In this document: piece after piece, positions 9,289-49,775 of the stretch | How the letters are laid out: the number at the start of each line of letters is the position of its first letter | How positions within the stretch are numbered: the first letter of the stretch is position 1 | DNA from: an uncultured Bdellovibrionales bacterium | Lineage (GTDB): Bacteria > Bdellovibrionota > Bdellovibrionia > Bdellovibrionales > SG-bin7 | Assembly: GCA_964498095.1 (NCBI GenBank) | Contig: CAZCFY010000007.1 | Location: 114,257-178,256 of the forward strand | Length of the DNA stretch: 64,000 nucleotides | Direction: 5' to 3' | Program-made: the position numbers and the translations under genes | Notes under the pieces: model-generated | The model's database searches: none | What the model saw: only the letters and a program-made list of their open reading frames with translations | What the model was told of the DNA's origin: nothing

Positions 9289-10857
9289 GCGCCGTAGGTC
9301 ACTGTTAACGCCCTCTATCGAATAATATTTCAGGCTGCGTATGTAATTATTTGACTGTGTATTGTTGCCGTGACCCGCACTGTAACCCAGAGAAATTAAA
9401 TTGACCATTGGCAACGCCGCCGCTGGAAGTGTCCCAATAATCATTCCGTTTTCAAAAACCGTTACTCCTGAGGCGGAATACGAGAAAGCTACCTTTCTAA
9501 TTCCTCCCAGTGTCCACGCCGTTGTTCCGGTTAAGGTTCTAACGGTTCCGCCAGCGATCACGTCTAAGGTAGTTAAATTGTTCTTCCCGGAAATGTAAAT
9601 TCCATCGGGAACTGCATTGCCAAACTCTCCGTTGGAATAGCCAAAGACGTAAGCATTGCCGCCGTTAGGTGGCAACTCACCGACTACAAATTCAAGCACA
9701 AAAATCCCCTGAGTCGCATCAAAATTTTGTGTTTGGGTGATCTTGGCAAAGTCAGAACCCCGTGTAACGGCGGCAGCTACGGTCGGTATATAACTTGACG
9801 GTTTGTCACCGAGCTCCACCTGCACCCCCCAATAAGCGCCATTTAATAATTCGTTGCCATTGGCATCATTATCAATGGTGAGCTGAATCGTCGCCGCCAA
9901 GGCCGTGCCCGTAATGGAATGGCGCACCCACTTGTCGGTGAGTGGAATTAATTTTGGTGGAGCATTGGTACCCGGAAATTTTAATGTTAAATTTTGCGCT
10001 ACAGCGGCACGGGATTTTGCCCAAAGTGATGCCGTGTAAACGCTATTAATCGTGGCATTAATTATTGCAGAATTCACAAATGTGCCCACAACTGCCTGAA
10101 AGTCGACGTTATCAGCACTCATTAAACCATCTGGGCCTTGTGAACCATTGAGGGCCACAGCCATGACCAGTGGGTCAATGGATCCATAAGCCCATGGCGG
10201 TGCCGCAAGTTCCGAACTTGAAGTAATTAAATTTTGCGATCCACGCTCGATAAATAATCCCAATGCTAAATTTTTTACCGGATCGAACATGAACCGCGGT
10301 GCCGCCGCGATTACGGTTTTTACTTGATTTAAATTATTAACATAGGTGGCAATAGCCATATTGCCGTCATTGCGCGAAAAGTTTAGTAACTGATTATTGT
10401 CGCTACCGTCGACTTTTGCCGTGAGGGTATTTTTTGTAAAATCAAAGTCTACTTTTGCTTCCAAAACTTCAATATCTATTTCTGACTTTTGTCCCTTGGA
10501 GTCAGTAATAGTGATTCGGTTTAACCCAGCACTTGTCGGATTGAAAATTGAACCCGAAAGCAGTAAGGCGTTACCCGTTATTACCGAATAAACATAGGGC
10601 GGAGTACCCGACACGATATAATCACTCACGTTAAGTGCATCGGATCCGATCAACACTGATATTTTTGGCTTCGAGACAGTTACGGCGGTTGGCGGTGGTT
10701 GCTGGACTGGAGTCAGGTCGCCTTGGGACCCAGTTTCTAAGTTTCCTAATTTGCCACAAGCATTGTAGGAAAGTGGCCCGGCGGCGAGCAAAATAGCGCA
10801 AATTGATAAAGTAAGGCGTCTCTGGCCTGGACCCATGGGCCAAGAAAATCGCGACAT
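9277..10857 (-). CDS. Secreted protein with an Ig-like (He_PIG-like) and a LamG/lectin-like region, function unknown
   Basis: Signal peptide/lipobox (YNAC). The GTPPYVYSVITG segment supports the Ig-like call; the domain assignment is weak. Confidence 0.4.
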   Translation of the reverse strand: MSRFSWPMGPGQRRLTLSICAILLAAGPLSYNACGKLGNLETGSQGDLTPVQQPPPTAVTVSKPKISVLIGSDALNVSDYIVSGTPPYVYSVITGNALLLSGSIFNPTSAGLNRITITDSKGQKSEIDIEVLEAKVDFDFTKNTLTAKVDGSDNNQLLNFSRNDGNMAIATYVNNLNQVKTVIAAAPRFMFDPVKNLALGLFIERGSQNLITSSSELAAPPWAYGSIDPLVMAVALNGSQGPDGLMSADNVDFQAVVGTFVNSAIINATINSVYTASLWAKSRAAVAQNLTLKFPGTNAPPKLIPLTDKWVRHSITGTALAATIQLTIDNDANGNELLNGAYWGVQVELGDKPSSYIPTVAAAVTRGSDFAKITQTQNFDATQGIFVLEFVVGELPPNGGNAYVFGYSNGEFGNAVPDGIYISGKNNLTTLDVIAGGTVRTLTGTTAWTLGGIRKVAFSYSASGVTVFENGMIIGTLPAAALPMVNLISLGYSAGHGNNTQSNNYIRSLKYYSIEGVNSDLRRLSL

Positions 10858-22946: not shown

Positions 22947-24608
22947 CTAAAGCACGGAGAGGTGGCCGAGTGGTTGAAGGCGCATGCCTGGAACGCATGT
23001 ATGCTCGCAAGGGCATCGGGGGTTCGAATCCCTTCCTCTCCGCCAATTTAGATCTTGCTTCATTTCACTCAAAGTCCGCAGTGGTTTTACTATTTCATAC
23101 CGCACACTTAGACCATCCAAAGTTGGGTTGTAGAGTAGGTCATCCAACAGCAAACGTCGTTCTTCAGGGCTTTGCAATTTCCACAGTGATTCTGCGTTTG
23201 TGGCGAGTTGTAGAATGGTTTTCGCTGTTTCGAGTGCAGCACCGTTTATGTCTAGCTGGGCACGTTCCATCAGATTTGTGAACTGTGCGCGTTCCTGTCT
23301 CACACGCTTGAAGTTTCGCTTGTATGAATCATCATCAAGAATTCCTTGCCGAAAATGTTCATAAATCTGGTCTTCTTCATCTTCCAGCGACTTCAGTGCC
23401 AACTTGTAGTTTTCAATATCGCGCTTGATAGCATTCTGCGCCTTCTTTTCATTTTCATTCAATGCTTCAGCAACCAGTTCGCTGAATTCTTTTGTAATGC
23501 TGATTTGTTGAATTGCAGGTTCAAATTGTTCCATCAATTCTTCTTCCTTTATTCGCATTCCCTTCAGGCTGGAATGGACACCTTTGCCATTGGTGCAGTG
23601 ATAGTATTTGAATACCTTTCGTTCGCCAGTGGCCTTGATGTTCTTCTTGGTGGGGTTGTAAACGACGTGACATCCACATTCAACGTTCGCACACTTCATC
23701 CAGCCGCCACTGAACAGACCATCGGTTTTTTTTGAATATGGGTTTCTGAACCCAAAAGTTTCTTGGACTGTCCAAAACAGTTCGGCGGGGATGAGTCTTT
23801 CGTGTTTTCCTTGGTATTCAGTGCCTTGCCAGTCAAAGCGACAATCATAAAATTTATTTTTCAAGCGTCGATCAATTGTTCCAACATGATAGCTTTTTAT
23901 TTCAGAAGGCTGAATAAAGCCTTCGTCGATGACCTGTCGTCTGACTTCTCGAAGGGAAATCGGATTGCCATTGTGATCTTTCTTTGCCCTAAGTTCAAAT
24001 TCCCGCCGCACCTGTGCAACTACTTTTGGGTTGGGATCAAAAACCACAACTGTGCCACGTCGCTTTTCAAACCCCTTTGAATTTCTGTGTTTCTGATGTG
24101 CATATCCCAATGGAAGATGTGTGCCAGGATGCCAACCTTCTTCGGCCTTAGCCCTGGTCCCATTTTTCACCTTGGTTCCAAGTTCACGGCTGTAGTGTTT
24201 GTTCATTGCTGCATTGATATCACGATTGAAAAACTCTGAATCAGGGCTGTTCTTATGCAAGACTTTGTTGTCCAAAGCATAGTGTAGAATTCTTTTGCCA
24301 AGACGAACTAGATTTTCATTGTCTTCATTGTCTGTCAGGTTTCGCGCTTCCCGATCAGACCGATGATACACATGGTGTTTGATCCCTTGTTTGTCAGCCC
24401 ATTCAACAGCCGCCTTGTATTGCTTTCGCAAACTCGAATCTTTGGCGGACTCAACCAAATAGAAAATCTTGACCAACTGCAAGCCTTTTGATGAACAGTA
24501 TTGCTTCACATCGCGTTCTTGAGTTGAACTCGAAGTGTTGCCTTCCTGTCCAATACTACTGACACGAAGAATTGCGATTGCTTTGTTGTTGCTGGCCGAA
24601 ATTTCCAT
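22947..24608 (-). CDS. Large serine recombinase (integrase); the ORF tail reads antisense through the tRNA
   Basis: N-terminal [10 protein letters not shown] (nucleophile Ser) and SDREARN. Recombinase domain, then a zinc-ribbon CANVECGCH...YYHCTNG and a coiled-coil. AAGGA RBS before the ATG at 24608. The last 32 aa are encoded by tRNA-antisense sequence. Confidence 0.85.
22956..23045 (+). tRNA. tRNA-Ser (anticodon GGA), class II with a long variable arm and encoded CCA
   Basis: Acceptor GGAGAGG/CCTCTCC. Anticodon stem CATGC/GCATG with loop CTGGAAC (GGA at 22990-22992). T-loop TTCGAAT. Total length 90 nt. Confidence 0.9.
23027..23051. repeat. Left direct repeat (att-like) formed by the tRNA-Ser 3' end
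   Basis: AATCCCTTCCTCTCCGCCA (19 nt) is identical to 31644-31662. The match extends to 25 nt with one mismatch (A/C) before TTTAG. Confidence 0.8.
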
Positions 24609-24657
24609 TTTGATCCTTCAGTTTATTAAATTTTCCTTAGAAACTCCATTGTTATCG

Positions 24658-24725
24658 GGTTGTAGAGTGTCTCGCTGTCCCCAATTCCCACGCATTGGTT
24701 TCCTGGTTGTAAAGTGTCTCGGTCC
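24658..24725. promoter_or_regulatory. Two ~20-bp direct repeats immediately upstream of the integrase start
   Basis: GGTTGTAGAGTGTCTCG (24658-) and GGTTGTAAAGTGTCTCG (24705-), 47 bp apart, sit in the 125-bp gap between the zinc-ribbon gene and the integrase. Confidence 0.35.
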
Positions 24726-24733
24726 ACGGCACT

Positions 24734-25090
24734 TCACCAATCAATTTGACCGTTTGCCCTTGCCTTGTCTCTCCACTTGGCAAGCCTTTCAAAAAACTTG
24801 ATTGTCTTCTGAACTTCCCATTTTTCATAGCTTGGGTGCTGAAGAACTTTTTGGACAATAGCTGTCAGGTCATGGCTGGTGATTGAACTTTGGGGTGATG
24901 CTTGTTCAAGCATCGTCTTGCCTGTTCCACCATTCCCCCGCCGTTGTCGTTCTCGCTGCGCCTTGCAGGGCTTGCAGCATGGACCACGACGAACAATGGC
25001 TTCAGCCCTGGCACTGACAATCGGAAAGTCCGATAACACCTTCGATTGGCCGCACACCTTGCATGGTTTTGTATTGTTTTGTTCATCCAA
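24734..25090 (-). CDS. Small four-Cys zinc-ribbon protein (island-encoded), function unknown
   Basis: CKVCG...(24 aa)...CCKPCK followed by a basic stretch. 118 aa. Confidence 0.45.
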   Translation of the reverse strand: MDEQNNTKPCKVCGQSKVLSDFPIVSARAEAIVRRGPCCKPCKAQRERQRRGNGGTGKTMLEQASPQSSITSHDLTAIVQKVLQHPSYEKWEVQKTIKFFERLAKWRDKARANGQIDW

Positions 25091-25193
25091 ACTTCATGTG
25101 ACATCCTTTCCGTCAAAATTGCTTTGATCTTTCGATCCCTGCGCCTGACACCGTTTGTTTATGGCTGAAAGCCATCCGTTTTCCGCAAAACCT

Positions 25194-25628
25194 TTATTTT
25201 CTTAGCTGTGCAAAAATTTTTCTTCGCTGTATTCCGTACTTCACTTTTTCAGAATGTGTTCTCACATCAATGAATTTGGTCTTGGTATTTCGTGCCCAAG
25301 ACAACCATTCACTTCCGCGCTGTGGTTCAACCCAATGGATTTCAAACCCACGTCGCTTGGCTGACTCCACAAATCTTTCAAGAATAATGAATCTTTTGGC
25401 AATTCTGTCTGGACCTGAAACGATGATGTGTCTGACATCACGATACCTGGCTACACCAAAGACTTTTGCACCACGAATAGCTTCGTCAGCCGCTGGATCA
25501 AGGAACATTTTTTCTTTGATTTTCAGCCCTTGTTCTTTGGCATAGGCTGAACAAACGAGAAATTGATTTTTCAGAAGTACTGGATCAATTGAACTAGCTA
25601 CAATCAGTGCATGGTGATTCTTCTTCAT
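25194..25628 (-). CDS. Resolvase catalytic-domain-like protein without a DNA-binding domain (degenerate serine-recombinase paralogue)
   Basis: By eye it aligns to the island resolvase: ALIVASSID vs IAIYIRCSTTEQ, and IIVSGPDRIAKRF..ERFVESAKRRGFEIHWV vs LVVWKLDRLFRSL..LHELGDLGIEFVAL. The Arg preceding the Ser is absent. Confidence 0.5.
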   Translation of the reverse strand: MKKNHHALIVASSIDPVLLKNQFLVCSAYAKEQGLKIKEKMFLDPAADEAIRGAKVFGVARYRDVRHIIVSGPDRIAKRFIILERFVESAKRRGFEIHWVEPQRGSEWLSWARNTKTKFIDVRTHSEKVKYGIQRRKIFAQLRK

Positions 25629-25904
25629 AGAAGAGCTCCATGTCGAAATTCAATGCTGAAGAAAGAATTTGGTTCTGTCAGGGGACTGGAAGAGAATTTG
25701 AATGGTGGTGCTTCGGCTTCAGCCGATACTTCAGTTATTATTGCTTCAATTTTCTTCTCTTTCATAAGGTTACTTTCCTTTCCATTATTCTTATTATTAT
25801 ATGCGGTCGTGGATGCTGGTATATATCGGCTGTCCATCCCGATAGCGATATCGTTAAAAAATGTCGATATGTACCGTTTGGATTAGTCTGTATATATCGA
25901 CACA

Positions 25905-26519
25905 TCATTGTAATAATCCCTGTTCGGAAAGATCATCTTTGCCTTGAGTGGCACTAGCTTTAGCATCAAGAAATCCAACTCGAAGACTTCCGTCCATCAA
26001 ATGATTTTCAACTCCGTCGAATTGCCAGCCAGTATTCAGGTCACGATATTTCCAGGCTTGTTTGTATTTCATTTTCTTTATCTTTCCTGTGCCATTGTTT
26101 TTCAGAATGTAACTTGTCCTAAGTAACCCCAAATCATTGAGACGTTTTAGATAACGACCAATGCAGTCTTTTGACACACCAAAAAAATTCGCAAGTGCTG
26201 CGATCTTATAAGTGCATGGATTCCGTTCGGTGGAACCCTCTTTGTCCCAGCAATGGGAAGCAATCCAAATGAAAAGCAAAATAACTTTTGCTGGCAAACG
26301 ACTTAGAAGGACCAAATTGATGTGTCGATCAGTATCGACATGTTTGTACTGACACCAACGATGTTGTTGTTCTTTTTTTCGTTCTGGAACGCCAACAGCT
26401 TGATATGTTTGTCTAGACGTTTGTTTTTTTACCGGTTTAGATTTTTTGCTGTTCATGGTGATCCGTGCTTCCGTTTGCCGTTGATTGAAGAAATGGCGAC
26501 TCAAGTCCATCGCGTCCAA
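25905..26519 (-). CDS. Winged-helix/HTH DNA-binding protein (candidate replication or regulatory protein of the element)
   Basis: KIAALANFFGVSKDCIGRYLKRLNDLGLLR is an HTH-like segment. The N-terminus is basic. Confidence 0.5.
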   Translation of the reverse strand: MDAMDLSRHFFNQRQTEARITMNSKKSKPVKKQTSRQTYQAVGVPERKKEQQHRWCQYKHVDTDRHINLVLLSRLPAKVILLFIWIASHCWDKEGSTERNPCTYKIAALANFFGVSKDCIGRYLKRLNDLGLLRTSYILKNNGTGKIKKMKYKQAWKYRDLNTGWQFDGVENHLMDGSLRVGFLDAKASATQGKDDLSEQGLLQ

Positions 26520-26712
26520 GAATTTTCAAAATCCTTGCGCGAACATTTGGCCAAGATGGTTCATGTCCATAAGCCGTGTGAATGATGTCTAGAATTTGTT
26601 TTCGTGCAATTTTGAGTTTGGTGTGTAGTAACTCAAAATCAGTATGCTGATCCGTTGCCATGTGCCGACTCGCTATCTCAATAGGCTTTTGCCCATTGGT
26701 CTTCAGTTCCAA
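26437..26712 (-). CDS. Hypothetical small protein (island)
   Basis: 91-aa ORF co-directional with the downstream wHTH gene. No recognisable motif. Confidence 0.3.
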   Translation of the reverse strand: MELKTNGQKPIEIASRHMATDQHTDFELLHTKLKIARKQILDIIHTAYGHEPSWPNVRARILKILGRDGLESPFLQSTANGSTDHHEQQKI

Positions 26713-27171
26713 TAGCGATTATTCACTACTGGTTTTCCTGAAGACTGCGGCGGATAGTTGCCAGTCAGGGGACGAACACAATCAACAAACAACAAGTGAT
26801 TGGCTTTGCGCCAATCCTATCCCTTTTGTCTCAGCGGTATTGATAGCCAAACAAATCGGCCATGTCAATAAAGTTCAATAATATCAATATGTTATACGTT
26901 GTTATACAGACATAAGTGTTTGAACTTAAAGGGAATGATCGAGTTATTGCCCAGCATTAAATGGGCACTTCTGAAGGATCAGTGGTCAGATTTTTTCAGA
27001 AAAAGAAAACAAATTTTTGAAATGGACGTGACCGCAATGCGGGACATGTTTTGGCTGAAGCGGCTTAGATACACCGTGGGGTTGCCGTGCGCCTTTATTG
27101 TGGGAGTATTCAATAAATTCGATACCCACCCCCACATTTATTTAGAAATCATTCTAGGTTCCAGCGAACGT

Positions 27172-27390
27172 TCAAGGTCGCTTCCGTTTATCTTTTGGTT
27201 GCGAGAGTCGTGTGCGAACGTATTGATCCAAGGCTGTTGCGGCGATGTCACTGACCGTCCAGCCGTCACGATCCGCAATTTTATCTATTTGAGACAGCAA
27301 TGCTTCAGGAAGTCGCCAAGCAATGAGTCGCTTTGGTCCTTTTGAAAAAGTCTTAGGTGGAAGAGTTTTCATATCTACTTTATAGCACAA
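27172..27390 (-). CDS. Ribbon-helix-helix (CopG/Arc-like) DNA-binding protein
   Basis: RLIAWRLPEALLSQIDKIADRDGWTVSDIAATALDQYV has the RHH beta-alpha-alpha pattern. The start may be MKTLPP at 27372. Confidence 0.55.
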   Translation of the reverse strand: MCYKVDMKTLPPKTFSKGPKRLIAWRLPEALLSQIDKIADRDGWTVSDIAATALDQYVRTRLSQPKDKRKRP

Positions 27391-27404
27391 CCCTGATTCA
27401 AGTT

Positions 27405-27421
27405 GCTATACGTTGTATAGC
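27405..27421. promoter_or_regulatory. Palindromic operator-like site between the divergent RHH and resolvase genes
   Basis: GCTATAC-GTT-GTATAGC has perfect 7-bp arms. An extra TATAGCA half-site lies at 27381-27387. Confidence 0.4.
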
Positions 27422-27452
27422 AATAAATAACAACATGTGTTATGCTGTGTGA

Positions 27453-28055
27453 ATGAAATCGGGAAGAATAAAAAGGATTGCCATATACATCCGCTGTTCA
27501 ACAACTGAACAAGACACTTCAATGCAATTGCACGATCTTCAGGAATTCACAAAGGCAAGGGGATGGTTAGTTCATAAGGTATATGAAGACTATGCTTCGG
27601 GAACGACTGCTAATCGCAAGGCACTGAAGGAAATGCTTCAAGATGCAAAACAGCGCAAGTTCGATGTCCTAGTAGTTTGGAAGTTGGATCGGCTATTCAG
27701 AAGTCTTCGAGACATGGTGACGACGCTGCACGAACTTGGGGATCTTGGAATTGAGTTCGTGGCACTTCGGGATCAAGTCGATTTGACCACGGCTTCAGGT
27801 CGCCTGATGACACACATGCTTTCAGCCTTTGCAGAATTTGAGGCATCATTGATTCGTGGTCGAGTGGTTGCTGGCTTAGAATCAGCACGAAGGCGCGGCC
27901 AGCGTTTGGGAAGACCAAGGCTGCGAGACGATGACAAGATTCGGTCCTTGCGCCACCAAGGACTGTCAGAACGCCAAATTGCAATCCGACTTGGGATTTC
28001 TAGGGGTGCTGTTCAGCGGTCGCTGCGAGTGGATTCAAAACCCATTCAAGGCTGA
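27453..28055 (+). CDS. Small serine recombinase (resolvase/invertase, Hin/Tn3-resolvase family)
   Basis: IAIYIRCSTTEQ, VVWKLDRLFRSL and a C-terminal HTH (GLSERQIAIRLGISRGAVQR). Confidence 0.9.
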   Translation: MKSGRIKRIAIYIRCSTTEQDTSMQLHDLQEFTKARGWLVHKVYEDYASGTTANRKALKEMLQDAKQRKFDVLVVWKLDRLFRSLRDMVTTLHELGDLGIEFVALRDQVDLTTASGRLMTHMLSAFAEFEASLIRGRVVAGLESARRRGQRLGRPRLRDDDKIRSLRHQGLSERQIAIRLGISRGAVQRSLRVDSKPIQG

Positions 28056-28216
28056 TCTTCCAAGTGACCGAAATTCCAAGGTCTGGATCACAGTATTTTG
28101 CTGGATTCAAAACTGAAGTTTTCGATCCATCGTTCCGCACAAATGTATAACAGGCTGTAACATACTCTGAAATAGTCGGCTCCAATCACCACGATCATTT
28201 CAAAAACGATTCACCC

Positions 28217-28574
28217 GAAACATTGCAACGTCAGCATGTTATGTTTGGCTGACAATCGTGTTTCATGTATTCCAAAAAAAAATGATTTTGGATCACCCCT
28301 AAACATGCTTTTATGTTTGGTCCAATTTAATGGCGAAAAGTGGTCGTATCAATAGGGCTTGGGGTGCCCTGTTTTGCTGTTCTTCCTTGGGGAAAAGCAT
28401 GTTTCGTTATGTTTTGAACATGAACGATCAAACATGCGAAACATGTCAAAGCGTATCCCCACATGGCACCTACTTATACCCCCATTCAAACATAAAAATC
28501 CATGTTTGGTGTAAGGGGGTTTCGGGGGGCTTTATAGGGGGACTTCGAATCAACAGAACATGTTTTATGTTTGG
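28217..28574. repeat. Iteron-like array: eight or more copies or half-copies of CATGTTT/ATGTTTGG in both orientations, in non-coding DNA
   Basis: CATGTTATGTTTGG 28235-28248. CATGCTTTTATGTTTGG 28304-28320. CATGTTTCGTTATGTTTTG 28398-28416. Inverted CATGTTTCGCATGTTTG 28429-28445. CAAACAT/CATGTTTGG 28487-28509. CATGTTTTATGTTTGG 28559-28574. Confidence 0.6.
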
Positions 28575-28622
28575 TTGGTTCTTTTTGTTTGTAGCTTGCC
28601 AAGTACTAAAATCGCAGCATGG

Positions 28623-29288
28623 TTACGCTTGAATCAGTTGGCACTCACCAGCGCCAATAACTTCTGGTGAATACCTATCGAGAGTAAAGCTGCCGTCTTT
28701 TCTGGTTGCAGAGAACAAAAGTGGCATTTCAAAGTTTCCACAAGTATTTCGAATTTCATTTGAGTTTTTATTTCTGGGCGGATGAAGCTGAAAGTTGTCG
28801 CTTTTAATTTCACCGGCAACTCGTTGCTTGTACCACTTTGCACATATTGATCGAAATACTCGGTCTTTGTCCGTTCTCACACACCAGATTCGACATCTCT
28901 TATTTCCAGTATTGGGTTCGTCATCCCACAGCACGAAATAGATATGGGGAATGTCATCGAGTGCGGATACGCTGAGATCTTTTCGCGATGTTTCCGATTT
29001 TCGGCCAGAAGGAATAACTCCATTGAAGCGAGGAGTATCAATTGCTTCCCAACAATTTGCGGCTTTTACGTCAGATCCATCTTCAAGGTCTGAGCCTTTT
29101 TTTTGAGCAAGTCCCTTTTTTCCTGTCAGTACTGAAACAAGGATTTGAGACCATGCTCTCGAATCACTTGGAATGGGTTGGCCGTATTTGTTAGCTAGAG
29201 GATGTACTTCATAAAATGCTTTGTGATGGGTGTTCAGAAGTCGGATAGCTTCGGATATGTTTTCTGGTTGTGATCCTCTAGGTGGCAT
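28623..29288 (-). CDS. Putative type II restriction endonuclease (PD-(D/E)xK, PvuII-like core)
   Basis: WSQILVSVLTGKKGLAQKKGSDLEDGSDVKAAN parallels the PvuII segment [33 protein letters not shown], which I recalled from memory. The gene is divergent from the adjacent MTase. Confidence 0.55.
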   Translation of the reverse strand: MPPRGSQPENISEAIRLLNTHHKAFYEVHPLANKYGQPIPSDSRAWSQILVSVLTGKKGLAQKKGSDLEDGSDVKAANCWEAIDTPRFNGVIPSGRKSETSRKDLSVSALDDIPHIYFVLWDDEPNTGNKRCRIWCVRTDKDRVFRSICAKWYKQRVAGEIKSDNFQLHPPRNKNSNEIRNTCGNFEMPLLFSATRKDGSFTLDRYSPEVIGAGECQLIQA

Positions 29289-29416
29289 ACGACCACTGGT
29301 CGGAATTTTGCTAACATTTCTGAAGGACTTAACTCATCGCAAAAATTTCGGATGCGGATCGTGATCCATATACAAGGCTTAGATATTGGTCTAGGCTTTT
29401 CACAAACGAGGTAACC

Positions 29417-31318
29417 ATGACCAAGGTAAACAACTTAGAAAAGCATCTACTAGAATTTGCAGACTATATTTATGCACACACCGCGCTAAAGCCCATGTCT
29501 AAAACGTTATTTTTTGTTTCTAGACTTCTTCTGGTGATGAAGCACTCCTCAAAATTGAACAAAGCAATTGAAATGGGTAGATCACCGTCAATTGACGAGT
29601 TGGTTAAGGAATATAACTTAGTCAGAAAAAAGTTCTCGCTCAATGAAGACGACTACGACCTAACTCAAGTACTCACTGATATTGAGCCTCAACTTGAAAT
29701 GGTTTTGAGTTTTCTGGTGAAAATCCACCAATTATCTGCCGACTTTGACGTATTAGGGCTAGCCTTCAACTCATTGTTAAGAGGGAAGTTTGAGGCGGGA
29801 GAAGGACTGGGCACTCATTTGACCCCAGAAGAGGTCGTTGTTCCAACTATTGAAATGGCGATAAGTGCGATGGATAAGAAGGCGCTCAAAGGGCTTCTAT
29901 CGGAAAAAAGCGAGCTAATTGCCGGAGACATTACAGGGGGAACAGGGAGATTCATGTTCCACCTAGTAAAAGCACTGGAGAAGAAGAAAAACGCCTCGCT
30001 TTCGATTATAAATAAAGTATTCCTTTATGACCAATCAAAAATTCACACTGAGTTTTGCGAAATAAATTTTCTCTTAGAGAGTGAGTTCAAGCCGAAGTGT
30101 TACTGTGTTTCTGATTCACTGACCAGCTCCGCACTTGATAAACATAAGGGCAAGTTCGCGCTGTTGCTGACTAACCCACCATTCGGAGTGAATAAGTATT
30201 CTTACAGTGAAATGGTTAAGAATCATTTTAACGAGAAGATTCTAAAGTTTTTCAATTTCAATGTCGCCGGTGCCACGATTGATCCGGCTTGGTTATTTAT
30301 TGTTAAAAACTTGGATTTATTAGCTGACGGCGGAGTGCTTGGGATTGTTTTGCCAAACGGAATCGCCCATTCAGAGGAGTTGATTCGCTTGTTTAATAGC
30401 TATGAGACATTGAACCAAGTCGAACTTTCTGTGTGTGGAGTATTTTCTTTGCCCACTGTGACCTTTGCCCTTGGCGGCACCGTCGCGAAAACCACAGTGC
30501 TTCTAATTGGCAAGAATACCGAATTCAAAAAGCTGGCAACGGCAACAGTTGAACATATCGGTTTTGAGAAAAGTGGCAATAAGCGCACCGAATCTGTGCA
30601 TGGAAATCAGCTTATGGACGTTGCAAAAGAGTTTATTGCGGGTGAAAATAGCAAATTGTTAACGTGGTCAGATAGCTGGAGAGATTTTGCAAGACTCTCC
30701 CCAGATTTAATCCAATTCAAATCTAGAAAAAATCAGAATAGTTCATTGGAAATGGAATCGCTTGAGAGCCTTGTGTCCCACAGGAGAGACTTTGGTAAAA
30801 TTCAAAAAAACTCTCAATCGAAGCATCTACACATTTCAATTCTTGATATTGATGAAACCGGACTAATTGATGTGAGATCTTGTTTGGCGCAAGCACCTGT
30901 TACACAGCCACTTGTTTGTGAGCCAGGAGATATTTTGGTATCTTGCTTGAACCCAAATATTTGGAGAGCGACGTTCATTCCAGAATTGCCTAATACAACT
31001 TGGACTTGTAGCCCTGAATTTGCTGTCCTAAAGCCTAAAAAGATCGGCCAGCTTCATTCAGCTAAGTTATTCCTTTTGATTCAACAACACGCTGTTAGAA
31101 GCCAAGTTGTTTCCTTAGGAAGAGGGACATCTTCAAGCAGACAGAGAGTGAAGAAAACAGATCTTAACCATGTCGATGTGCCTATTCTGTCCTTAGCGGA
31201 TACAACGGTTAAAAACTTTCTAAAAAGTCGAATGGATTTTTATAAAAACAGAATGACGGAACTAGAGTTTATGCGTGAATTGAGTGCGGGTTCTGCTGTG
31301 GAATTGAGTCTGAGCTAA
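29417..31318 (+). CDS. N6-adenine DNA methyltransferase (gamma class) with a C-terminal target-recognition region
   Basis: Motif I GDITGGTGRFMF precedes motif IV LLLTNPPFGV. 633 aa. Confidence 0.85.
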   Translation: MTKVNNLEKHLLEFADYIYAHTALKPMSKTLFFVSRLLLVMKHSSKLNKAIEMGRSPSIDELVKEYNLVRKKFSLNEDDYDLTQVLTDIEPQLEMVLSFLVKIHQLSADFDVLGLAFNSLLRGKFEAGEGLGTHLTPEEVVVPTIEMAISAMDKKALKGLLSEKSELIAGDITGGTGRFMFHLVKALEKKKNASLSIINKVFLYDQSKIHTEFCEINFLLESEFKPKCYCVSDSLTSSALDKHKGKFALLLTNPPFGVNKYSYSEMVKNHFNEKILKFFNFNVAGATIDPAWLFIVKNLDLLADGGVLGIVLPNGIAHSEELIRLFNSYETLNQVELSVCGVFSLPTVTFALGGTVAKTTVLLIGKNTEFKKLATATVEHIGFEKSGNKRTESVHGNQLMDVAKEFIAGENSKLLTWSDSWRDFARLSPDLIQFKSRKNQNSSLEMESLESLVSHRRDFGKIQKNSQSKHLHISILDIDETGLIDVRSCLAQAPVTQPLVCEPGDILVSCLNPNIWRATFIPELPNTTWTCSPEFAVLKPKKIGQLHSAKLFLLIQQHAVRSQVVSLGRGTSSSRQRVKKTDLNHVDVPILSLADTTVKNFLKSRMDFYKNRMTELEFMRELSAGSAVELSLS

Positions 31319-31356
31319 ACTATTTCGACCGCTTCATTCGCTTTGAACCGAGCGGC

Positions 31357-31385
31357 TGGGCACGGCTTGGGCACATGATGGGCAC
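31357..31385 (+). repeat. Three TGGGCAC direct repeats at exact 11-bp phasing
   Basis: TGGGCAC at 31357-31363, 31368-31374 and 31379-31385, about 260 bp inside the right end of the element. Confidence 0.5.
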
Positions 31386-31496
31386 GAAATCGAGTGCGGC
31401 CATGAATGTTCAGAAACAATGTGATTGCAAGGGGTTGGTTAGGCAGCATGTGATAGGCAATCATTCCGAAAGCTGTCTATTCGTGTCCGCCAAAAT

Positions 31497-31527
31497 AAAA
31501 AAGCTCACTGAAGGTGGGCTTTTTTTA
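31497..31527 (+). terminator. Rho-independent terminator downstream of the MTase
   Basis: AGCTCAC-tgaag-GTGGGCT forms a stem with one G-U pair, flanked by an A-run and a T7 run. Confidence 0.5.
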
Positions 31528-31643
31528 TTTTGTTGGCAAGGTAGCGATAAGAACTCAGACGAGGGGTTCGATCAAAATAGCACAATGCTATTTTGGCGCG
31601 TAGCCTTGAGCGGAGCGAAAGGTCGAGGGCAGGAGCCCGAGAC

Positions 31644-31668
31644 AATCCCTTCCTCTCCGCCACTTTAG
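31644..31668. repeat. Right direct repeat (att-like), a copy of the tRNA-Ser 3' end
   Basis: AATCCCTTCCTCTCCGCCAcTTTAG. The sequence upstream of it is not tRNA-like. Confidence 0.8.
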
Positions 31669-31814
31669 CCACAATCGGCCTTAATAATTTGGTCTACTAT
31701 GACTATTCCTTCTTATTTTGAGACACTTGCGTGTGCCATATAAGGTAATTTTTTTTACGGGCTTAATTCAAAATAGAAACCAGGTTCATGAATTTTTTAA
31801 ATCGTTAGATAGGA

Positions 31815-45105: not shown

Positions 45106-46599
45106 TTAACTACTCTTTGGTAGTTCCGAAATCGGCGCCTCTTTTAGTTCTTTACCATTGTACATGTAAATGCGGCGCTCACCGTCCATTACAGTAACGA
45201 GGTTAACAGGTCTTCCCCAAACGGAAAATAGGTTAGCCATCGTGTCAGACATATAGTTGGGCTGCATATCCACACCTTCGTGAAGGTGGTTTAACAAAAG
45301 CTCGCCCCGGTTTTCAAAATTGGCGTCTTCGATTTGAATAATCGGCTGCCCGAAATTTGTAAGGTGAAACAAGAACTGCTTCTTTATGGCGCCAAAATTT
45401 CGAGTTTCGATTTCATAGTGACCCGTGCGTGGATTATGTTTGTAAACAAACATTTTGTTCTTAACGCAAAATTCCTCGGTTAAAAACTCATCAATAAATG
45501 TGACGTCATTGTAGTTACGCCGAACCTCAAAAATCTTCTCTCGTCCCAGGCCAAGCTTCTTATCCCAGCTTTGCTTAAGCTTTATGTCTTCACATTCATT
45601 CCACTCTTTGCCAAACTGACCTTTATTCCAACGCTCCTCGATATCTCGGAAAAGCTCAATACCGACTTTGTAGGGGTTAAATCCCGTCGGCGACATGGCC
45701 ATCGTGCCGCTATGATGATCGGCATAATCCACAACTTCCGCGCTGGTCACAACGTCGCTAGTCATAATTTTTGAATGCCAATAACTAGCCCAGCCTTCAT
45801 TCATGATTTTCGTCATGCCCTGTGGGGCAAAATAGTAAGCTTCATCACGAATTATAGACATAACCTCTTGCTGCCAATTCTTTAATGGCGCGTTGTAAAT
45901 TAAGAACAAGAGAATGTCGCGCTCTGCTCGCGCCGGAAATTTTGCCAGCTGTTGGCGCTTACTCACTTCGCGCTGCTGTTGCTCTTTAATAAACTGAGGT
46001 GGATTAATGTATTCGTCCATATAGTCGCGGTCGACTTTAAACTTTTGATCCGAAATGGACTCGTCTTCCTGAGAACTTTCGCTTTTTGACGGAACGTAAG
46101 GACTGTAGCGGTCAATTAAGTTTTCCAAACTCAAACACAAGTCCACAAAGTTTTCCACCTCCTCGATGCCATAGCGGTCGATAAAGCGGCGGATCTTTGT
46201 GGCGTTATTAGCCATTACATCCATCATTTTGCGGTTTGTTTTGGAAAACCACTGGTTATTTTTAAAAAAGTCGCAATGGCCGTAGACATGGGCCATCACC
46301 AGCTTTTGATCTACAAAGAGATTTCCTTCCATTAAGTAGGCGTAACAAGGGTCCGTGTTTATGACCATTTCGTAAATTTTGGAGAGCCCATATTCGTAAC
46401 CCTTTGAGAGCTGCTCATATTCCATACCAAATCGCCAATGCGGATAGCGGACTGGAAATCCCCCGCGCGCGGCGAATTGATTCATTTGATCATAGGTGAT
46501 TACTTCGAAAACAGTTTCGAAAAAGTCGAGCCCATAACTGCGCGCAATTTTTTCTATTTTTACGCGTTCTTTTTCTAGTTCGGGAGGTAACACGCCCAT
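45106..46599 (-). CDS. spoVR: SpoVR family protein
   Basis: 497 aa. Typical SpoVR sequence and its position downstream of yeaH-like and prkA. Confidence 0.9.
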   Translation of the reverse strand: MGVLPPELEKERVKIEKIARSYGLDFFETVFEVITYDQMNQFAARGGFPVRYPHWRFGMEYEQLSKGYEYGLSKIYEMVINTDPCYAYLMEGNLFVDQKLVMAHVYGHCDFFKNNQWFSKTNRKMMDVMANNATKIRRFIDRYGIEEVENFVDLCLSLENLIDRYSPYVPSKSESSQEDESISDQKFKVDRDYMDEYINPPQFIKEQQQREVSKRQQLAKFPARAERDILLFLIYNAPLKNWQQEVMSIIRDEAYYFAPQGMTKIMNEGWASYWHSKIMTSDVVTSAEVVDYADHHSGTMAMSPTGFNPYKVGIELFRDIEERWNKGQFGKEWNECEDIKLKQSWDKKLGLGREKIFEVRRNYNDVTFIDEFLTEEFCVKNKMFVYKHNPRTGHYEIETRNFGAIKKQFLFHLTNFGQPIIQIEDANFENRGELLLNHLHEGVDMQPNYMSDTMANLFSVWGRPVNLVTVMDGERRIYMYNGKELKEAPISELPKSS

Positions 46600-47697
46600 T
46601 TACTTTCCCTTTCCTAAAAAGTCTTTAATGGAATCAACTATTTTTTCCCGGCTGGGGATCCGGCTAGTGACAAGGACTTCCGAGTTAGGAAATTCACGCT
46701 CTAAATCTTTTAAAAACTGGCCGCTTCCGTATTTACTTTCCACCTGCCCATAACCAAACATATTTACGCGCGGAAAAAAGAAGTCTTTAATTAAATTTAA
46801 GCAAAGCCGGGTGTCCTCGCCGCTCCAATTGTCCCCGTCACTAAAGTGAAAAGGATATATATTCCAGCGATCCAAGGGGTATTCATCATCAATTATTTTT
46901 TGACAAAGCTTATACGCAGAACTGATAAGCGTGCCGCCCGACTCGCTTGTGCTAAAAAAAGTTTTCTCGTCGACTTCTTTCGCCGAAGCGTCGTGGATAA
47001 TAAAACGTGTTTCGAGCCCTTTATAATGACGCTTTAACCAAGCATTGATCCAAAAACTTTCCAGGCGAACGATTTCTTTTTGTTCATCACCCATGGAGCC
47101 TGAAACGTCCATCATATAAATGACGACGGCACTGGCTTCGGGCTTAACAACCGTCTTAAATGAGCGGTAGCGAAAATCCCGTCGGATGGGAACAACAATG
47201 GGATCATCCGGATTATAAGTGCCCGAAGCTATCGAACGCTTTAACGCTTCTTTGTAAGAGGCTTTAAAATGCCTAAGTCCTTCCGGTCCCACCGGCGCTA
47301 ATCCTGAATATTTTATTTTCGTGATATCGGTTTGCTTGTTACCCTTGGGCTGAATGCGCGGAAGCTGCAACTCTTCACCTAAAATGTCGGCTAGATCTTC
47401 AAGCTGAACATCTATTTCTAAAATATGTTCGCCCGGAGAATCACCCGCTTGGCCAGCGCCGGGCCCTTGTTCACCATCGACCGCATCGCCGGGCCCACCC
47501 TGTCCCTGGCCAACCCCGCCACTTTGCTTGGGTCCATATTTAAAACGCGGAATATCGATCTGCGGGATGGGGATTTTTACGAAATCCTTTTCCTGCCTTC
47601 CGATCATTTCGCCATGGGTAATATATTTCTTGAAGTTCTCTTTTATCTTCCCACGGACGATCTGCTTAAACCTGTTATGGTCTTCTCGTATACTCAT
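46600..47697 (-). CDS. yeaH: YeaH/YhbH (DUF444) family protein
   Basis: Gly/Gln-rich loop plus a vWA-like C-terminus. The start overlaps the prkA stop (TAATG). Confidence 0.85.
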
Positions 47698-49775
47698 TAT
47701 TTATTTTTTACGTCTCCACGGGCAAAAATGCTGGCCACATACTGAAGAACATCGTTAGCTGAAACCTCGTCATATCCAAAATCCTTAATAAGACGGGATT
47801 TCACGATATCGATTTTCTCTTGCGTATCTTTATCCACGACACTCGAAACCAGAGAGTTCAATTTGATAGAGTCTTTTTGGTCCTCAAAAAGCTTTAATTC
47901 AAAGGCCTTATGCAGTCTCTCGTTTGTGCGGTAATCAAAACGCTTACCGTCCAAAGACAGGTGACCGATATGCCCCATGATTTCCCGGCGAAAATCGTCC
48001 TTGCGTGATTCGGGAATATCTATTTTTTCCTCAATCGAACGCATTAGCCGCTCGTTTGGTTCCTCATCTTGGCCGGTAAATTGATTGCGTACTTTTTCCC
48101 GTTGAGTATACGCCTTGACATTATCGATATAGTTACCGCAAAGCCGCGCTAAAGCGCCTTCGTCGGCACTAATCGCCCGCTGCACTTCCGCTTTTATAAT
48201 GTCTTCATATTCCTGCTTAACGACGGCTAATAATTCTTTAAACTCATTTTTAATTTCGTCATTAGAAATGAGTGAGTGATTTTTTAAACCGGCGTCAAGT
48301 TCATTGAGAACCATGAAGGGATTTACTGAACCCTTATTCATTTGTTGCGCAAACACGATCGCGTTAGAAAGCTTATCCTGAATATAGCGTGGAGAGATTC
48401 CCTCTAAGCCTTCGCGCTTGGCTTCTTTTCTGAGTTCTTTGACGTTATCTTCGGTAAAGTTTGGCAATGTCTTTCCATTATAGAGTTTTAATTTTTGAAT
48501 CCGCGTAAGATTTGCTTTCTTAGGTTTCTCTAAGCGCGTAAGTACGGCCCACATCGCAGCCATTTCGATAGTATGTGGAGCAATACTAATTCCGCGCAAT
48601 TTGCGCGAATTAAAATCCTTTTTGTAAATTTGAATTTCGTCGTTCCATTTGGTGATGTAAGGAATGTCGATTTTCACGGTACGGTCGCGAAGCGCTTCCA
48701 TAAATTCGTTGTCTTGAAGTTTGCGGTACTCGGGCTCATTGGTATGACCGATAATTACTTCATCAATATGGGTTTGCGCAAATTTCTTGGGCTTTACTCT
48801 GTGCTCTTGCGAAGCTCCCAGTAAATCATATAAGAACGCTACATCTAGTTTTAACACTTCCACGAATTCAATCATTCCGCGGTTGGCAACATTAAACTCA
48901 CCGTCGAAGTTAAACGCGCGGGGGTCTGAATCCGACCCATACTCCGCAATTTTACGGTAATTGATATCACCGGTTAACTCGGTGCTGTCCTGATTTTTTT
49001 CATCTTTAGGCTGGAATGTCCCGATTCCGACGCGGTCGGCCTCGCTTAGAATTAAGCGGTGAACTTTGACGTGCCCAAGAACTTTTGTAAGGTCACCCTC
49101 GTAGCGATTCATAAGCTGCGTGAAGATGTAACGGCTAGGCGGACTTAATTCACCTTCCAAAGTTATGCGAAAGTCCCCTTTGTAACCACGATTTAGCTCT
49201 TCCAAAAACTTTGGCCGCAATTCGTGTGGGATAAGTAGTAGCGGCTCTTCGTGCATCGGACTGGCGAAAGCACGATTACCTTTTCCAAACAACCATTCGT
49301 TTTCACCATTGGGATCAACCCAATCAAATGTGTAGAGTGCTCCGCCATCGGTTTTAGAGTAGCGCTCGACTCCCTGTTTTAACAGACGGCAAATTGTTGA
49401 CTTGGCACTTCCTACCGGTCCATGCAGCAGGATAACGCGTTTTTCGGTTCCATAACCAAGGGCGGCGGACCGAAGAACGTTAATTAATTTCATGATCGGC
49501 ACATCCAAACCGAACACGGCATCCTTTCCGTTATTTTCATCGTCATTAAAAAAGTGGTAACGGATGACTTGCTTTTTCGTATCAACATAATCGGCTTTGC
49601 CTTTTTCCATGATCATGTCGTACATGCGCTGAAACGCATTGCGAGTCACTTTTGGATTATTTTTCACGATGTTGAGGTATTCGTCGAAACTTCCGCTCCA
49701 GCTTAGGTCACGGAATTTTTCGCGGTCGTTCCAATCTTTTAGTAGCCCCTGAAGACTTATTCTTGAATCGGCCAT
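47697..49775 (-). CDS. prkA: PrkA family serine protein kinase (AAA+ N-domain)
   Basis: 692 aa. Walker [12 protein letters not shown]. Conserved prkA-yeaH-spoVR order. Confidence 0.9.

Follow-up and report, generated by a model that had tools for sequence, protein, structure and literature searches.

Introduction

Large serine recombinases (LSRs) recombine attP with attB independently of host factors, depend on a directionality factor for excision and require only 2 bp for crossover. The integrases of phages A118/LI, Bxb1 and PhiC31 share a domain order of catalytic domain, recombinase domain and zinc ribbon with an embedded coiled coil, as well as short common cores and an attP outer motif placed 5 bp further from the centre than that of attB. 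By a working rule, tRNA and transfer-messenger RNA (tmRNA) genes are the province of tyrosine integrases, and serine integrases insert inside protein genes. In reviews, elements moved by serine recombinases are said to insert within genes and to have very short repeats (PMC5704250), and in a provirus survey of 2026 RNA targets and long cores go with tyrosine integrases (PMC13626063). Here, we examined a 64-kb stretch of DNA from an uncultured Bdellovibrionales bacterium (contig CAZCFY010000007.1; hereafter, the window), in which an LSR gene (22947-24608, minus strand) runs into the 3' end of a tRNA-Ser(GGA) gene (22956-23045, plus strand). We propose that an island of 8,447 bp, measured from core to core (~23047-31493), was very probably inserted at the extreme 3' end of this tRNA gene by its own LSR, through attachment sites with short cores, and that a longer repeat outside the island is a relic. 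By the comparisons below, a coherent LSR clade appears to perform the job of a tyrosine integrase by LSR chemistry.

The family to which this LSR belongs resembles the A118/LI, Bxb1 and PhiC31 integrases in domain order and in its short cores and, as regards the relatives of the window LSR, in the 5-bp spacing, but differs from them in its targets, namely, tRNA and tmRNA 3' ends rather than protein-coding genes, and in the placement of attP within its own reading frame. Myxophage Mx8, for its part, targets the end of a tRNA gene. Its integrase also has attP within the integrase gene, although it is of the tyrosine family, with other chemistry and site architecture; its C-terminus is reported to be replaced on integration and the altered enzyme to be less active (PMC4701971). 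The serine integrases of the streptococcal integrative and conjugative elements (ICEs) that target rumA likewise have an attachment site inside the integrase gene, such that exchange of the 3' end alters the length and sequence of the C-terminus, and their direct repeats span 2-21 bp (PMC4701971). Unlike the island described here, which would regenerate the tRNA and whose detached tail is a conserved peptide, these elements belong to Firmicutes and disrupt the protein-coding rumA. In tyrosine islands of the type collected by Islander, insertion also takes place at a tRNA 3' end, a copied displaced end keeps the tRNA intact, the integrase adjoins the tRNA and integrase clades track their targets; the enzyme family differs, and the displaced fragment measures tens of nucleotides, compared with only 6-10 nt in the present family. 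Finally, the staphylococcal CcrA/B/C recombinases are LSRs that produce short direct repeats at the end of a conserved housekeeping gene, but their target is the rlmH/orfX 3' end instead of a tRNA, and their hosts belong to a different phylum. In our literature search, no tRNA-targeting LSR clade was found described, with a prior mention in the TIGER study (Mageeney 2020) or in the large LSR catalogues being possible.

A large serine recombinase fused to a tRNA gene

The LSR open reading frame (ORF) encodes 553 amino acids. It matched the Pfam Resolvase domain (PF00239; E = 1.6e-9, 38.5 bits against a cut-off of 23.3) and, at the borderline, the Recombinase domain (PF07508; 1e-3, 19.8 bits against 21.1), and the Pfam zinc-ribbon model gave no match to it. 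A profile of 22 homologues matched the Listeria A118/LI integrase (6dnw) with an E value of 3.7e-10 over positions 245-504, i.e., the C-terminal region comprising the recombinase, zinc-ribbon and coiled-coil parts. The AlphaFold model, with a mean pLDDT of 79.6, predicts beta strands for residues 314-338 and long helices for residues 373-455, and Foldseek aligned it with full-length serine integrases (9dxd, 9dxh, Bxb1 9iu2, PhiC31 9rah and 4kis; E down to 5e-16), to which it is 11-18% identical in sequence. Among the 22 homologues, the catalytic residues R15 and S17 (Arg-x-Ser nucleophile motif) are near-invariant and D85, R86 and R89 (D-R-x-x-R pocket) invariant, as are the zinc-ribbon cysteines C306, C311 and C338. 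The gene is thus a genuine LSR in its catalytic, recombinase and zinc-ribbon/coiled-coil parts, as a first-pass annotation of the window had recognised. The best NCBIfam matches were Ccr recombinases, at 30.9 and 25.3 bits against cut-offs of 900 and 700; an assignment as a Ccr cassette recombinase was rejected, given scores of 25-31 bits that fall far below 700-900 and a tRNA as the target.

The tRNA-Ser(GGA) gene, the sole ARAGORN call in the window, is intact (Rfam RF00005, 58.7 bits), and its 3' part would form the B arm of the attachment site. The first-pass annotation overlooked that the LSR ORF leaves the island without meeting a stop codon: the native part comprises residues 1-520 (23049-24608), the codons of the core overlap the left attachment core, attL, and the final 34 codons read through the tRNA in antisense. 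Exact-sequence look-ups returned no record of this LSR or of the protein encoded on the right flank. The Pfam tyrosine recombinase domain (Phage_integrase, PF00589) was not found in the 47 window ORFs of at least 170 amino acids or in the smaller island ORFs scanned, so that the claimed absence of a tyrosine recombinase stands; the accompanying claim that the LSR is the only candidate holds for its role as the integrase but not for its being the sole recombinase, given a small serine resolvase/invertase at 27453-28055.

Family-wide association with tRNA and tmRNA ends

A protein search returned 205 LSR relatives, of which the few with a source name came from Bdellovibrionota; 43 genome loci with an LSR homologue were fetched for neighbourhood comparison. 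At 29 of the 43, a tRNA or tmRNA gene on the opposite strand begins 3-20 nt past the end of the protein match, contrary to the possibility, raised in the first pass, that homologues of this LSR always target unrelated sites; the other loci are mostly truncated at contig ends or carry an arm of the attP type (see below). Targeted genes include those for tRNA-Ser (GGA, GCT, CGA, TGA), Glu, Arg (ACG, TCT, TCG), Leu (CAA, CAG, GAG, TAA), Ala, Val and Asp and for tmRNA, i.e., at least 15 tRNA species by anticodon, representing seven amino acids, in addition to tmRNA. The tRNA side of these loci carries housekeeping genes and the LSR side carries cargo, such as restriction-modification systems, a DUF927 primase, AlpA and helix-turn-helix (HTH) regulators.

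The register of the fusion is fixed. Of the 36 loci that could be anchored on the tRNA end, 33 have an open frame in which the conserved Met codon sits exactly 18 nt ahead of TGG (CCA read in antisense), and hence the LSR continues in frame through the complement of the tRNA CCA end. The aligned C-termini read W-R-x-x-x-D-S-N-P..., where the Trp codon TGG is the CCA antisense and D-S-N corresponds to the T-loop GTTCGAATC read in antisense; among 120 homologous proteins, 101 have Trp at the TGG position and 52 go on with D/E/G-S/L-N, residues encoded by the antisense of the T-loop. On these data, an association of LSR and tRNA by chance is not credible.

Distinct LSR clades correspond to the Ser, Leu, Glu and Arg-ACG targets. 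In the Ser clade, LSRs that are 58-95% identical adjoin tRNA-Ser isoacceptors with the common end TGGCGGAG; an LSR 95% identical to that of the window sits on a different tRNA-Ser(GGA) allele, which has only the last 10 nt in common with the window tRNA. An 87%-identical pair of LSRs adjoins a tmRNA in one case (L019, 11564-11912) and a tRNA-Ala(GGC) in the other (L030, 11564-11639), two targets with nothing in common at their ends but the 3'-terminal TGGTGGAG and the spacing of the T-loop. Between these LSRs the target has switched in nature, along the acceptor end of tmRNA, which is like that of tRNA-Ala. In a related host with matching gene order (GCV_H, LysR, Peptidase_S66, Pkinase, MgtE) and an identical tRNA, the locus holds a different element, with an LSR that is 58% identical. 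The syntenic tRNA-Ser(GGA) locus of a related host (L051, 159-3195) carries, with its different LSR element, AlpA and a 925-residue DUF927 primase-helicase, the gene combination known from P4-like satellite islands, where the integrase is normally of the tyrosine family. At another locus (L037, ~9307-9360), the LSR is followed by ~37 nt of tRNA-like antisense, covering the T arm and part of the next stem, with no ARAGORN call; this stretch could be a decayed tRNA or else a displaced fragment of greater length.

Short cores and a restored C-terminus

A search for sequences resembling the tRNA end located a second site, GTG-TCCGCCAA-AAT, whose 8 bp (31486-31493, the right core, attR) are identical to the attL core TCCGCCAA at 23039-23046, i.e., the final 7 nt of the tRNA plus 1 nt. 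When the LSR gene is joined to this inner site, it encodes a protein of 538 amino acids ending in NWRTRIDSFRNDCLSHAA before the stop codon, and the restored tail aligns without gaps, and at equal length, with native tails of the phage form, for example that of P0019 (WRARVDDFITDCLAHAA, then stop). The P arm of attP would accordingly lie at 31439-31492 on the minus strand, where the C-terminus reconstruction and a peptide-motif scan both place the detached native C-terminus, WRTRIDSFRNDCLSHAA followed by a stop. By contrast, joining the gene to the long repeat at 31644-31668, which the first-pass annotation took for the working junction, gives the tail WRRGRDCLGLLPSTFRSAQGYAPK and a stop, without the family motif. 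The inner site is accepted because the restored C-terminus matches the family.

The same tail can be traced at other loci. On the correct strand, a scan for the peptide motif found far ends in L002 (11.5 kb), L005 (9.6 kb), L025 (11.3 kb) and L052 (two sites, at 10.2 and 11.0 kb), with 6 matches in 351 kb of upstream sequence compared with 1 in 829 kb of control sequence. The cores in these four islands measure 6-10 bp, compared with 8 bp in the window, as expected of LSR attachment sites, and what the cores of all five islands have in common is TGGCG(G/C), corresponding to the final 6 nt of the tRNA. Past the likely DNA half-site, the tail remains conserved as protein, with Cys-Leu from +33 onwards and varying codons, which suggests that the tail matters to the enzyme. 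By these comparisons, the working junction is 31486-31493 and the long repeat is not the recombination core of this LSR. It follows that the attP (31600-31668 joined to 23046-23100) and attB (the tRNA end plus 31669-31720) put forward in the first pass are the wrong substrates. The boundary adopted there was 175 bp off because tRNA fragments were paired only with tyrosine integrases.

Other searches for far ends were less informative. A search for exact or near-exact repeats in 10-kb flanks of ~32 related loci gave only weak matches of 9-12 nt; 9-mers spanning the TGG were enriched upstream (23, compared with 6 downstream), which is only suggestive; and a scan for a TGG-anchored core with GAAC at +24 to +26 gave 2 matches in 276 kb compared with 7 in 747 kb of control, of which that in L025 alone is convincing. 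When the 14-nt tRNA-Glu end was compared with viral sequences for the far end of provirus L060, there were only generic tRNAs among the matches listed. A repeat in L054, GGCGAAATGAA, considered as a B' arm, proved to consist of ribosome-binding sites and start codons. In L052, the two far sites of the P-arm type (positions 525 and 1390) are 865 nt apart and encode family tails beginning WRTRLDEFLTAC and WRARVDEFLTAC, which suggests that elements were stacked, or replaced one another, at a single tRNA-Ser(GCT).

The free attP form and the 5-bp spacing

In many homologues, the C-terminus consists of a conserved peptide instead of tRNA antisense, namely, W-R-x-x-(L/V)-D-(D/E)-F-R-T-x-C-L... Two such peptide-tailed LSRs, P0111 and P0103, are encoded inside phage genomes of 33-40 kb, flanked on both sides by terminase, lysozyme, SSB and methylase genes and with no tRNA. 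Given phage genes on both sides and no tRNA, these genomes represent the unintegrated form with a free attP and, because their LSRs have the peptide tail, the LSR frame crosses attP and the P arm encodes the native C-terminus.

The two kinds of arm differ in spacing, in a comparison that covers one arm of each site. Counted from TGG, each of the 34 tRNA arms has the start of GAAC at +20, and each of the 6 clean arms of the attP type has it at +25 (L184, L186, L012, L029, L031 and L038); an example is TGGCGTCCCCAC-TGGGATGACTTTCGAACC in L184 compared with TGGCGTCCCCAC-GGGGATTCGAACC in tRNA-Glu. In structural work on the LI/A118 integrase bound to attP, the outer motif of the attP half-site is reportedly 5 bp further out than that of attB, and this is said to be how LSRs distinguish the two sites. 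In the window, the P arm has a T-loop-like CTTTCGGAA, which lies ~5 bp further from the core than TTCGAAC in the tRNA and is a near, not an exact, match. On the P' side, identity at third codon positions is 0.72 compared with 0.39-0.60 upstream, a difference that covers only 8 positions and lends weak support.

The attP-type arms of L012, L029, L031 and L038 (GAAC at +25) follow an LSR without a tRNA, in L012 and L031 on contigs longer than 600 kb; they may be secondary-site insertions, nested elements or an assembled excised form. Three viral contigs, L061-L063, have the LSR amid phage genes and no tRNA but were rejected as clean examples of attP, the TGG being one nucleotide out of register.

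The long repeat as a probable relic

The direct repeat on which the first-pass annotation was built is real: 24 of 25 positions match between 23027-23051 and 31644-31668, 19 of them exactly, compared with a chance expectation of 0.01 in the window. It consists of 19 nt of the tRNA 3' end followed by xTTTAG and lies 150 nt outside the inner junction. The window contains an intact tRNA, the 8-bp displaced end at 31486-31493 and an outer fragment of 19 nt at 31644-31662. In the inner flank of the long repeat, no family tail is encoded and neither GAAC nor GGAC stands at +25, and a weak T-loop-like TCTCGGGC stands 4 nt further out than the T-loop motif of the tRNA. The repeat is probably a displaced tRNA fragment, the relic of an earlier, mostly lost insertion at the same tRNA, made perhaps by a tyrosine integrase or by another LSR; the two successive far sites of L052 indicate that stacking does occur in the LSR family. 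Of the two explanations offered in the first pass, the use of an attP that matches the tRNA end over an unusual length is right in that the LSR targets this end but not as regards the length, the cores being 6-10 bp, whereas the loss of the integrase that made the repeat would apply to the relic but not to the island, which the LSR itself very probably inserted.

The 150-nt spacer at 31494-31643 holds tRNA-like scraps, a T-arm-like GAGGGGTTCGATCAAAAT at 31561-31578 and ATTTTGGCGCG at 31590-31600, which resembles an inverted tRNA end; the spacer looks like a graveyard of old attachment sites.

A model for integration

We propose the following model. The attP would be located within the 3' end of the integrase gene: its P' arm would be the last ~25 nt of the conserved coding sequence (...LSEMKQDLN), its core TGGCGGA would encode Trp-Arg and at the same time be the antisense of the tRNA end ...TCCGCCA, and its P arm would encode the ~15 conserved C-terminal residues of the LSR. 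The attB would be the tRNA end plus the trailer. Immediately to the right of the inner core, AAAT is followed by a terminator-like hairpin with a 13-pair stem and a T-run (31497-31525, plus strand; the B' side); together these resemble a tRNA trailer, which in the model would have been preceded by the tRNA before insertion. Strand exchange would take place within the final ~6 nt of the tRNA (CGCCA/TGGCG), with the 2-bp crossover presumably there, inside TGGCGG, and because the final nucleotides of the tRNA are identical in attP, insertion would regenerate the tRNA. Spacing would distinguish attP from attB: the T-loop TTCGAAC is probably the motif of the zinc-ribbon domain on the B arm, and its T-loop-like counterpart on the P arm would sit 5 bp further out. 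The 3' strand of the acceptor stem would set the tRNA specificity of each clade, with the recombinase domain as its likely reader. The excised circle would carry the attP junction ...CTGTCTATTCGTGTCCGCCAATTTAGATCTTGC... and the empty attB would read ...CTCTCCGCCAAAATAAAAAAGCTCAC...

In this model, integration splits the integrase gene, so that the integrated copy has a tRNA-antisense tail in place of the native C-terminus, a loss that may alter the activity of the LSR. We further suggest, more tentatively, that this LSR clade of Bdellovibrionota has landed on the universal architecture of tRNA 3' ends, with crossover at CCA, an acceptor-strand code and the T-loop as zinc-ribbon motif, and that the C-terminal peptide, removed on integration and restored on excision, could act as a sensor of the integration state that contributes to setting the direction of recombination. 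Splitting of the integrase gene may be a simple form of directionality control, with Mx8 and the rumA ICEs as precedents.

Comparison alone yields a testable model of the site, with the crossover inside the CCA-proximal 6 nt, a T-loop outer motif and 5-bp attP spacing. Island finders that pair tRNA fragments with tyrosine integrases only would miss or mis-delimit such elements. Furthermore, serine integrases are the preferred tools for insertion of large cargo, and a family whose specificity seems to move between tRNAs via few acceptor-stem bases is natural material for retargeting, at sites that would be conserved and non-disruptive.

Evidence against the model and alternative explanations

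Several observations weigh against insertion by the LSR at the inner site. The 8-bp core is by itself statistically weak. At +25, where relatives carry GAAC or TAAC, the P arm of the window has CGGAA, and given this degenerate motif the element may be partly decayed. The long repeat also matches at 5 of the 6 nt past the CCA, which the relic interpretation leaves to chance or to T-rich tRNA trailers, and dyad-symmetry scoring of the reconstructed attP and attB, applied to the long-repeat sites only, gave no symmetric centre within the core. A metagenome scan with the 25-nt core gave neither an empty attB nor a circle junction, its six matches being unrelated tRNA-Ser genes, and the same core had no matches in a viral scan. 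The right-flank protein, unique to the source genome, has no homologue other than itself, so that no empty site is obtainable through the flank; the mobility of the element and its exact junction are therefore deduced only by comparison. Lastly, L050 encodes a short tyrosine recombinase of 203 amino acids (PF00589; 5738-6349, minus strand) 4 kb upstream of its LSR.

The element could be a dead remnant, its LSR inactivated by replacement of the C-terminus together with decay of the P arm, and the island fixed in place. This seems unlikely, although it deserves serious consideration: the integrated ORF does lack the conserved tail, the P-arm motif is degenerate and no excised or empty form was seen in the metagenome and viral scans. 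However, the conserved body of 520 residues is intact with all catalytic residues in place, both 8-bp cores are identical, and the tail swap is the normal integrated state across the LSR family. This possibility bears on whether the island is active today rather than on how it arose, and does not conflict with insertion by the LSR.

Alternatively, the island might extend to the long repeat (23046-31668), the LSR using an attP with 19-25 bp of tRNA identity and the inner 8-bp site being a coincidence. The 24/25 identity far above chance, the continuation of the match past CCA into sequence resembling a P' arm, the weak TCTCGGGC 4 nt further out than its tRNA counterpart, and the ~22 nt of tRNA-like sequence that L026 retains at a site without a tRNA are all in line with this view. 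We nevertheless regard it as improbable because joining the LSR to the repeat produces a tail, CLGLLPSTFRSAQGYAPK, with no family motif, whereas with the inner site the conserved tail of 17 residues is recovered exactly; moreover, the cores in four other islands are short, phage attP sites show short cores with the +25 motif, and the tRNA allele beside the 95%-identical LSR is different from position 11 inwards.

Tyrosine integrases are classically recognised by a long repeat and insertion at the 3' end of a tRNA gene (PMC4383910), and a lost or distantly encoded enzyme of this kind might have inserted the island, with the LSR as a passenger beside the tRNA. The short PF00589 protein of the L050 island fits this scenario, which is, however, very improbable, considering that the LSR-tRNA fusion is in fixed register at 33 of 36 independent loci with ~16 target genes, that LSR clades follow their targets, that the phage-form attP has the tRNA-end core within the LSR gene, and that no tyrosine recombinase was found in the window, L051, L052, L054 or L055. 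The scenario could hold for the outer relic alone. In L050, whose LSR is 79% identical to that of the window, the tyrosine recombinase adjoins a ParB_N gene and may be the dimer-resolution module of that element. That the small resolvase/invertase at 27453-28055 moves the island can be practically dismissed, since this gene, although an intact serine recombinase in a setting where surveys do report islands whose sole recombinase lacks the Recombinase domain (PMC12424338), is missing from most related islands (L051, L052 and L055) and adjoins neither junction, the junction geometry being tied to the LSR gene.

Partner gene, cargo and flanks

Directly upstream of the LSR, a gene at 24734-25090 (minus strand) encodes a partner protein of 118 amino acids, of unassigned function, with a Cys-rich N-terminus and the C-terminal motif WRDKARANGQIDW (...WRDxARxxGQIDW). 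Small ORFs with this motif occur directly upstream of the LSR at 12 or more loci (L001-L005, L040, L050, L051, L052, L054, L019 and L030). The protein had no match in Pfam, PADLOC or NCBIfam; given its position and conservation, it may be a directionality or accessory factor and is put forward as a candidate only.

The remaining genes of the island are cargo or regulatory. The ORFs at 25194-27390, for which Pfam matches are weak, include one of 144 amino acids with no identity assigned (25194-25628, minus strand), an HTH_36 protein of 204 amino acids (25905-26519, minus strand) and a ribbon-helix-helix (RHH)/CopG-like protein of 72 amino acids (27172-27390, minus strand). They are followed by the small serine recombinase (27453-28055, plus strand; Pfam Resolvase, 7.7e-44), a 200-residue resolvase/invertase with an HTH_7 domain that we count as cargo; its NCBIfam matches all fall far below cut-off, and a similar gene is present in the related island L054 (4961-5623) and absent from L051, L052 and L055. 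A type II restriction-modification system occupies 28623-31318 (PADLOC REase_II, 9e-15; MTase_II, 6.5e-20), with a MamI-like endonuclease (28623-29288, minus strand; Pfam RE_MamI, 8.9e-42) and an N6-adenine methyltransferase of 633 amino acids with a C-terminal specificity-like region (29417-31318, plus strand; Pfam N6_Mtase, 2e-12). Farther out in the host flank, at 45106-49775 on the minus strand, lies an ordinary PrkA/DUF444/SpoVR gene trio unrelated to the island.

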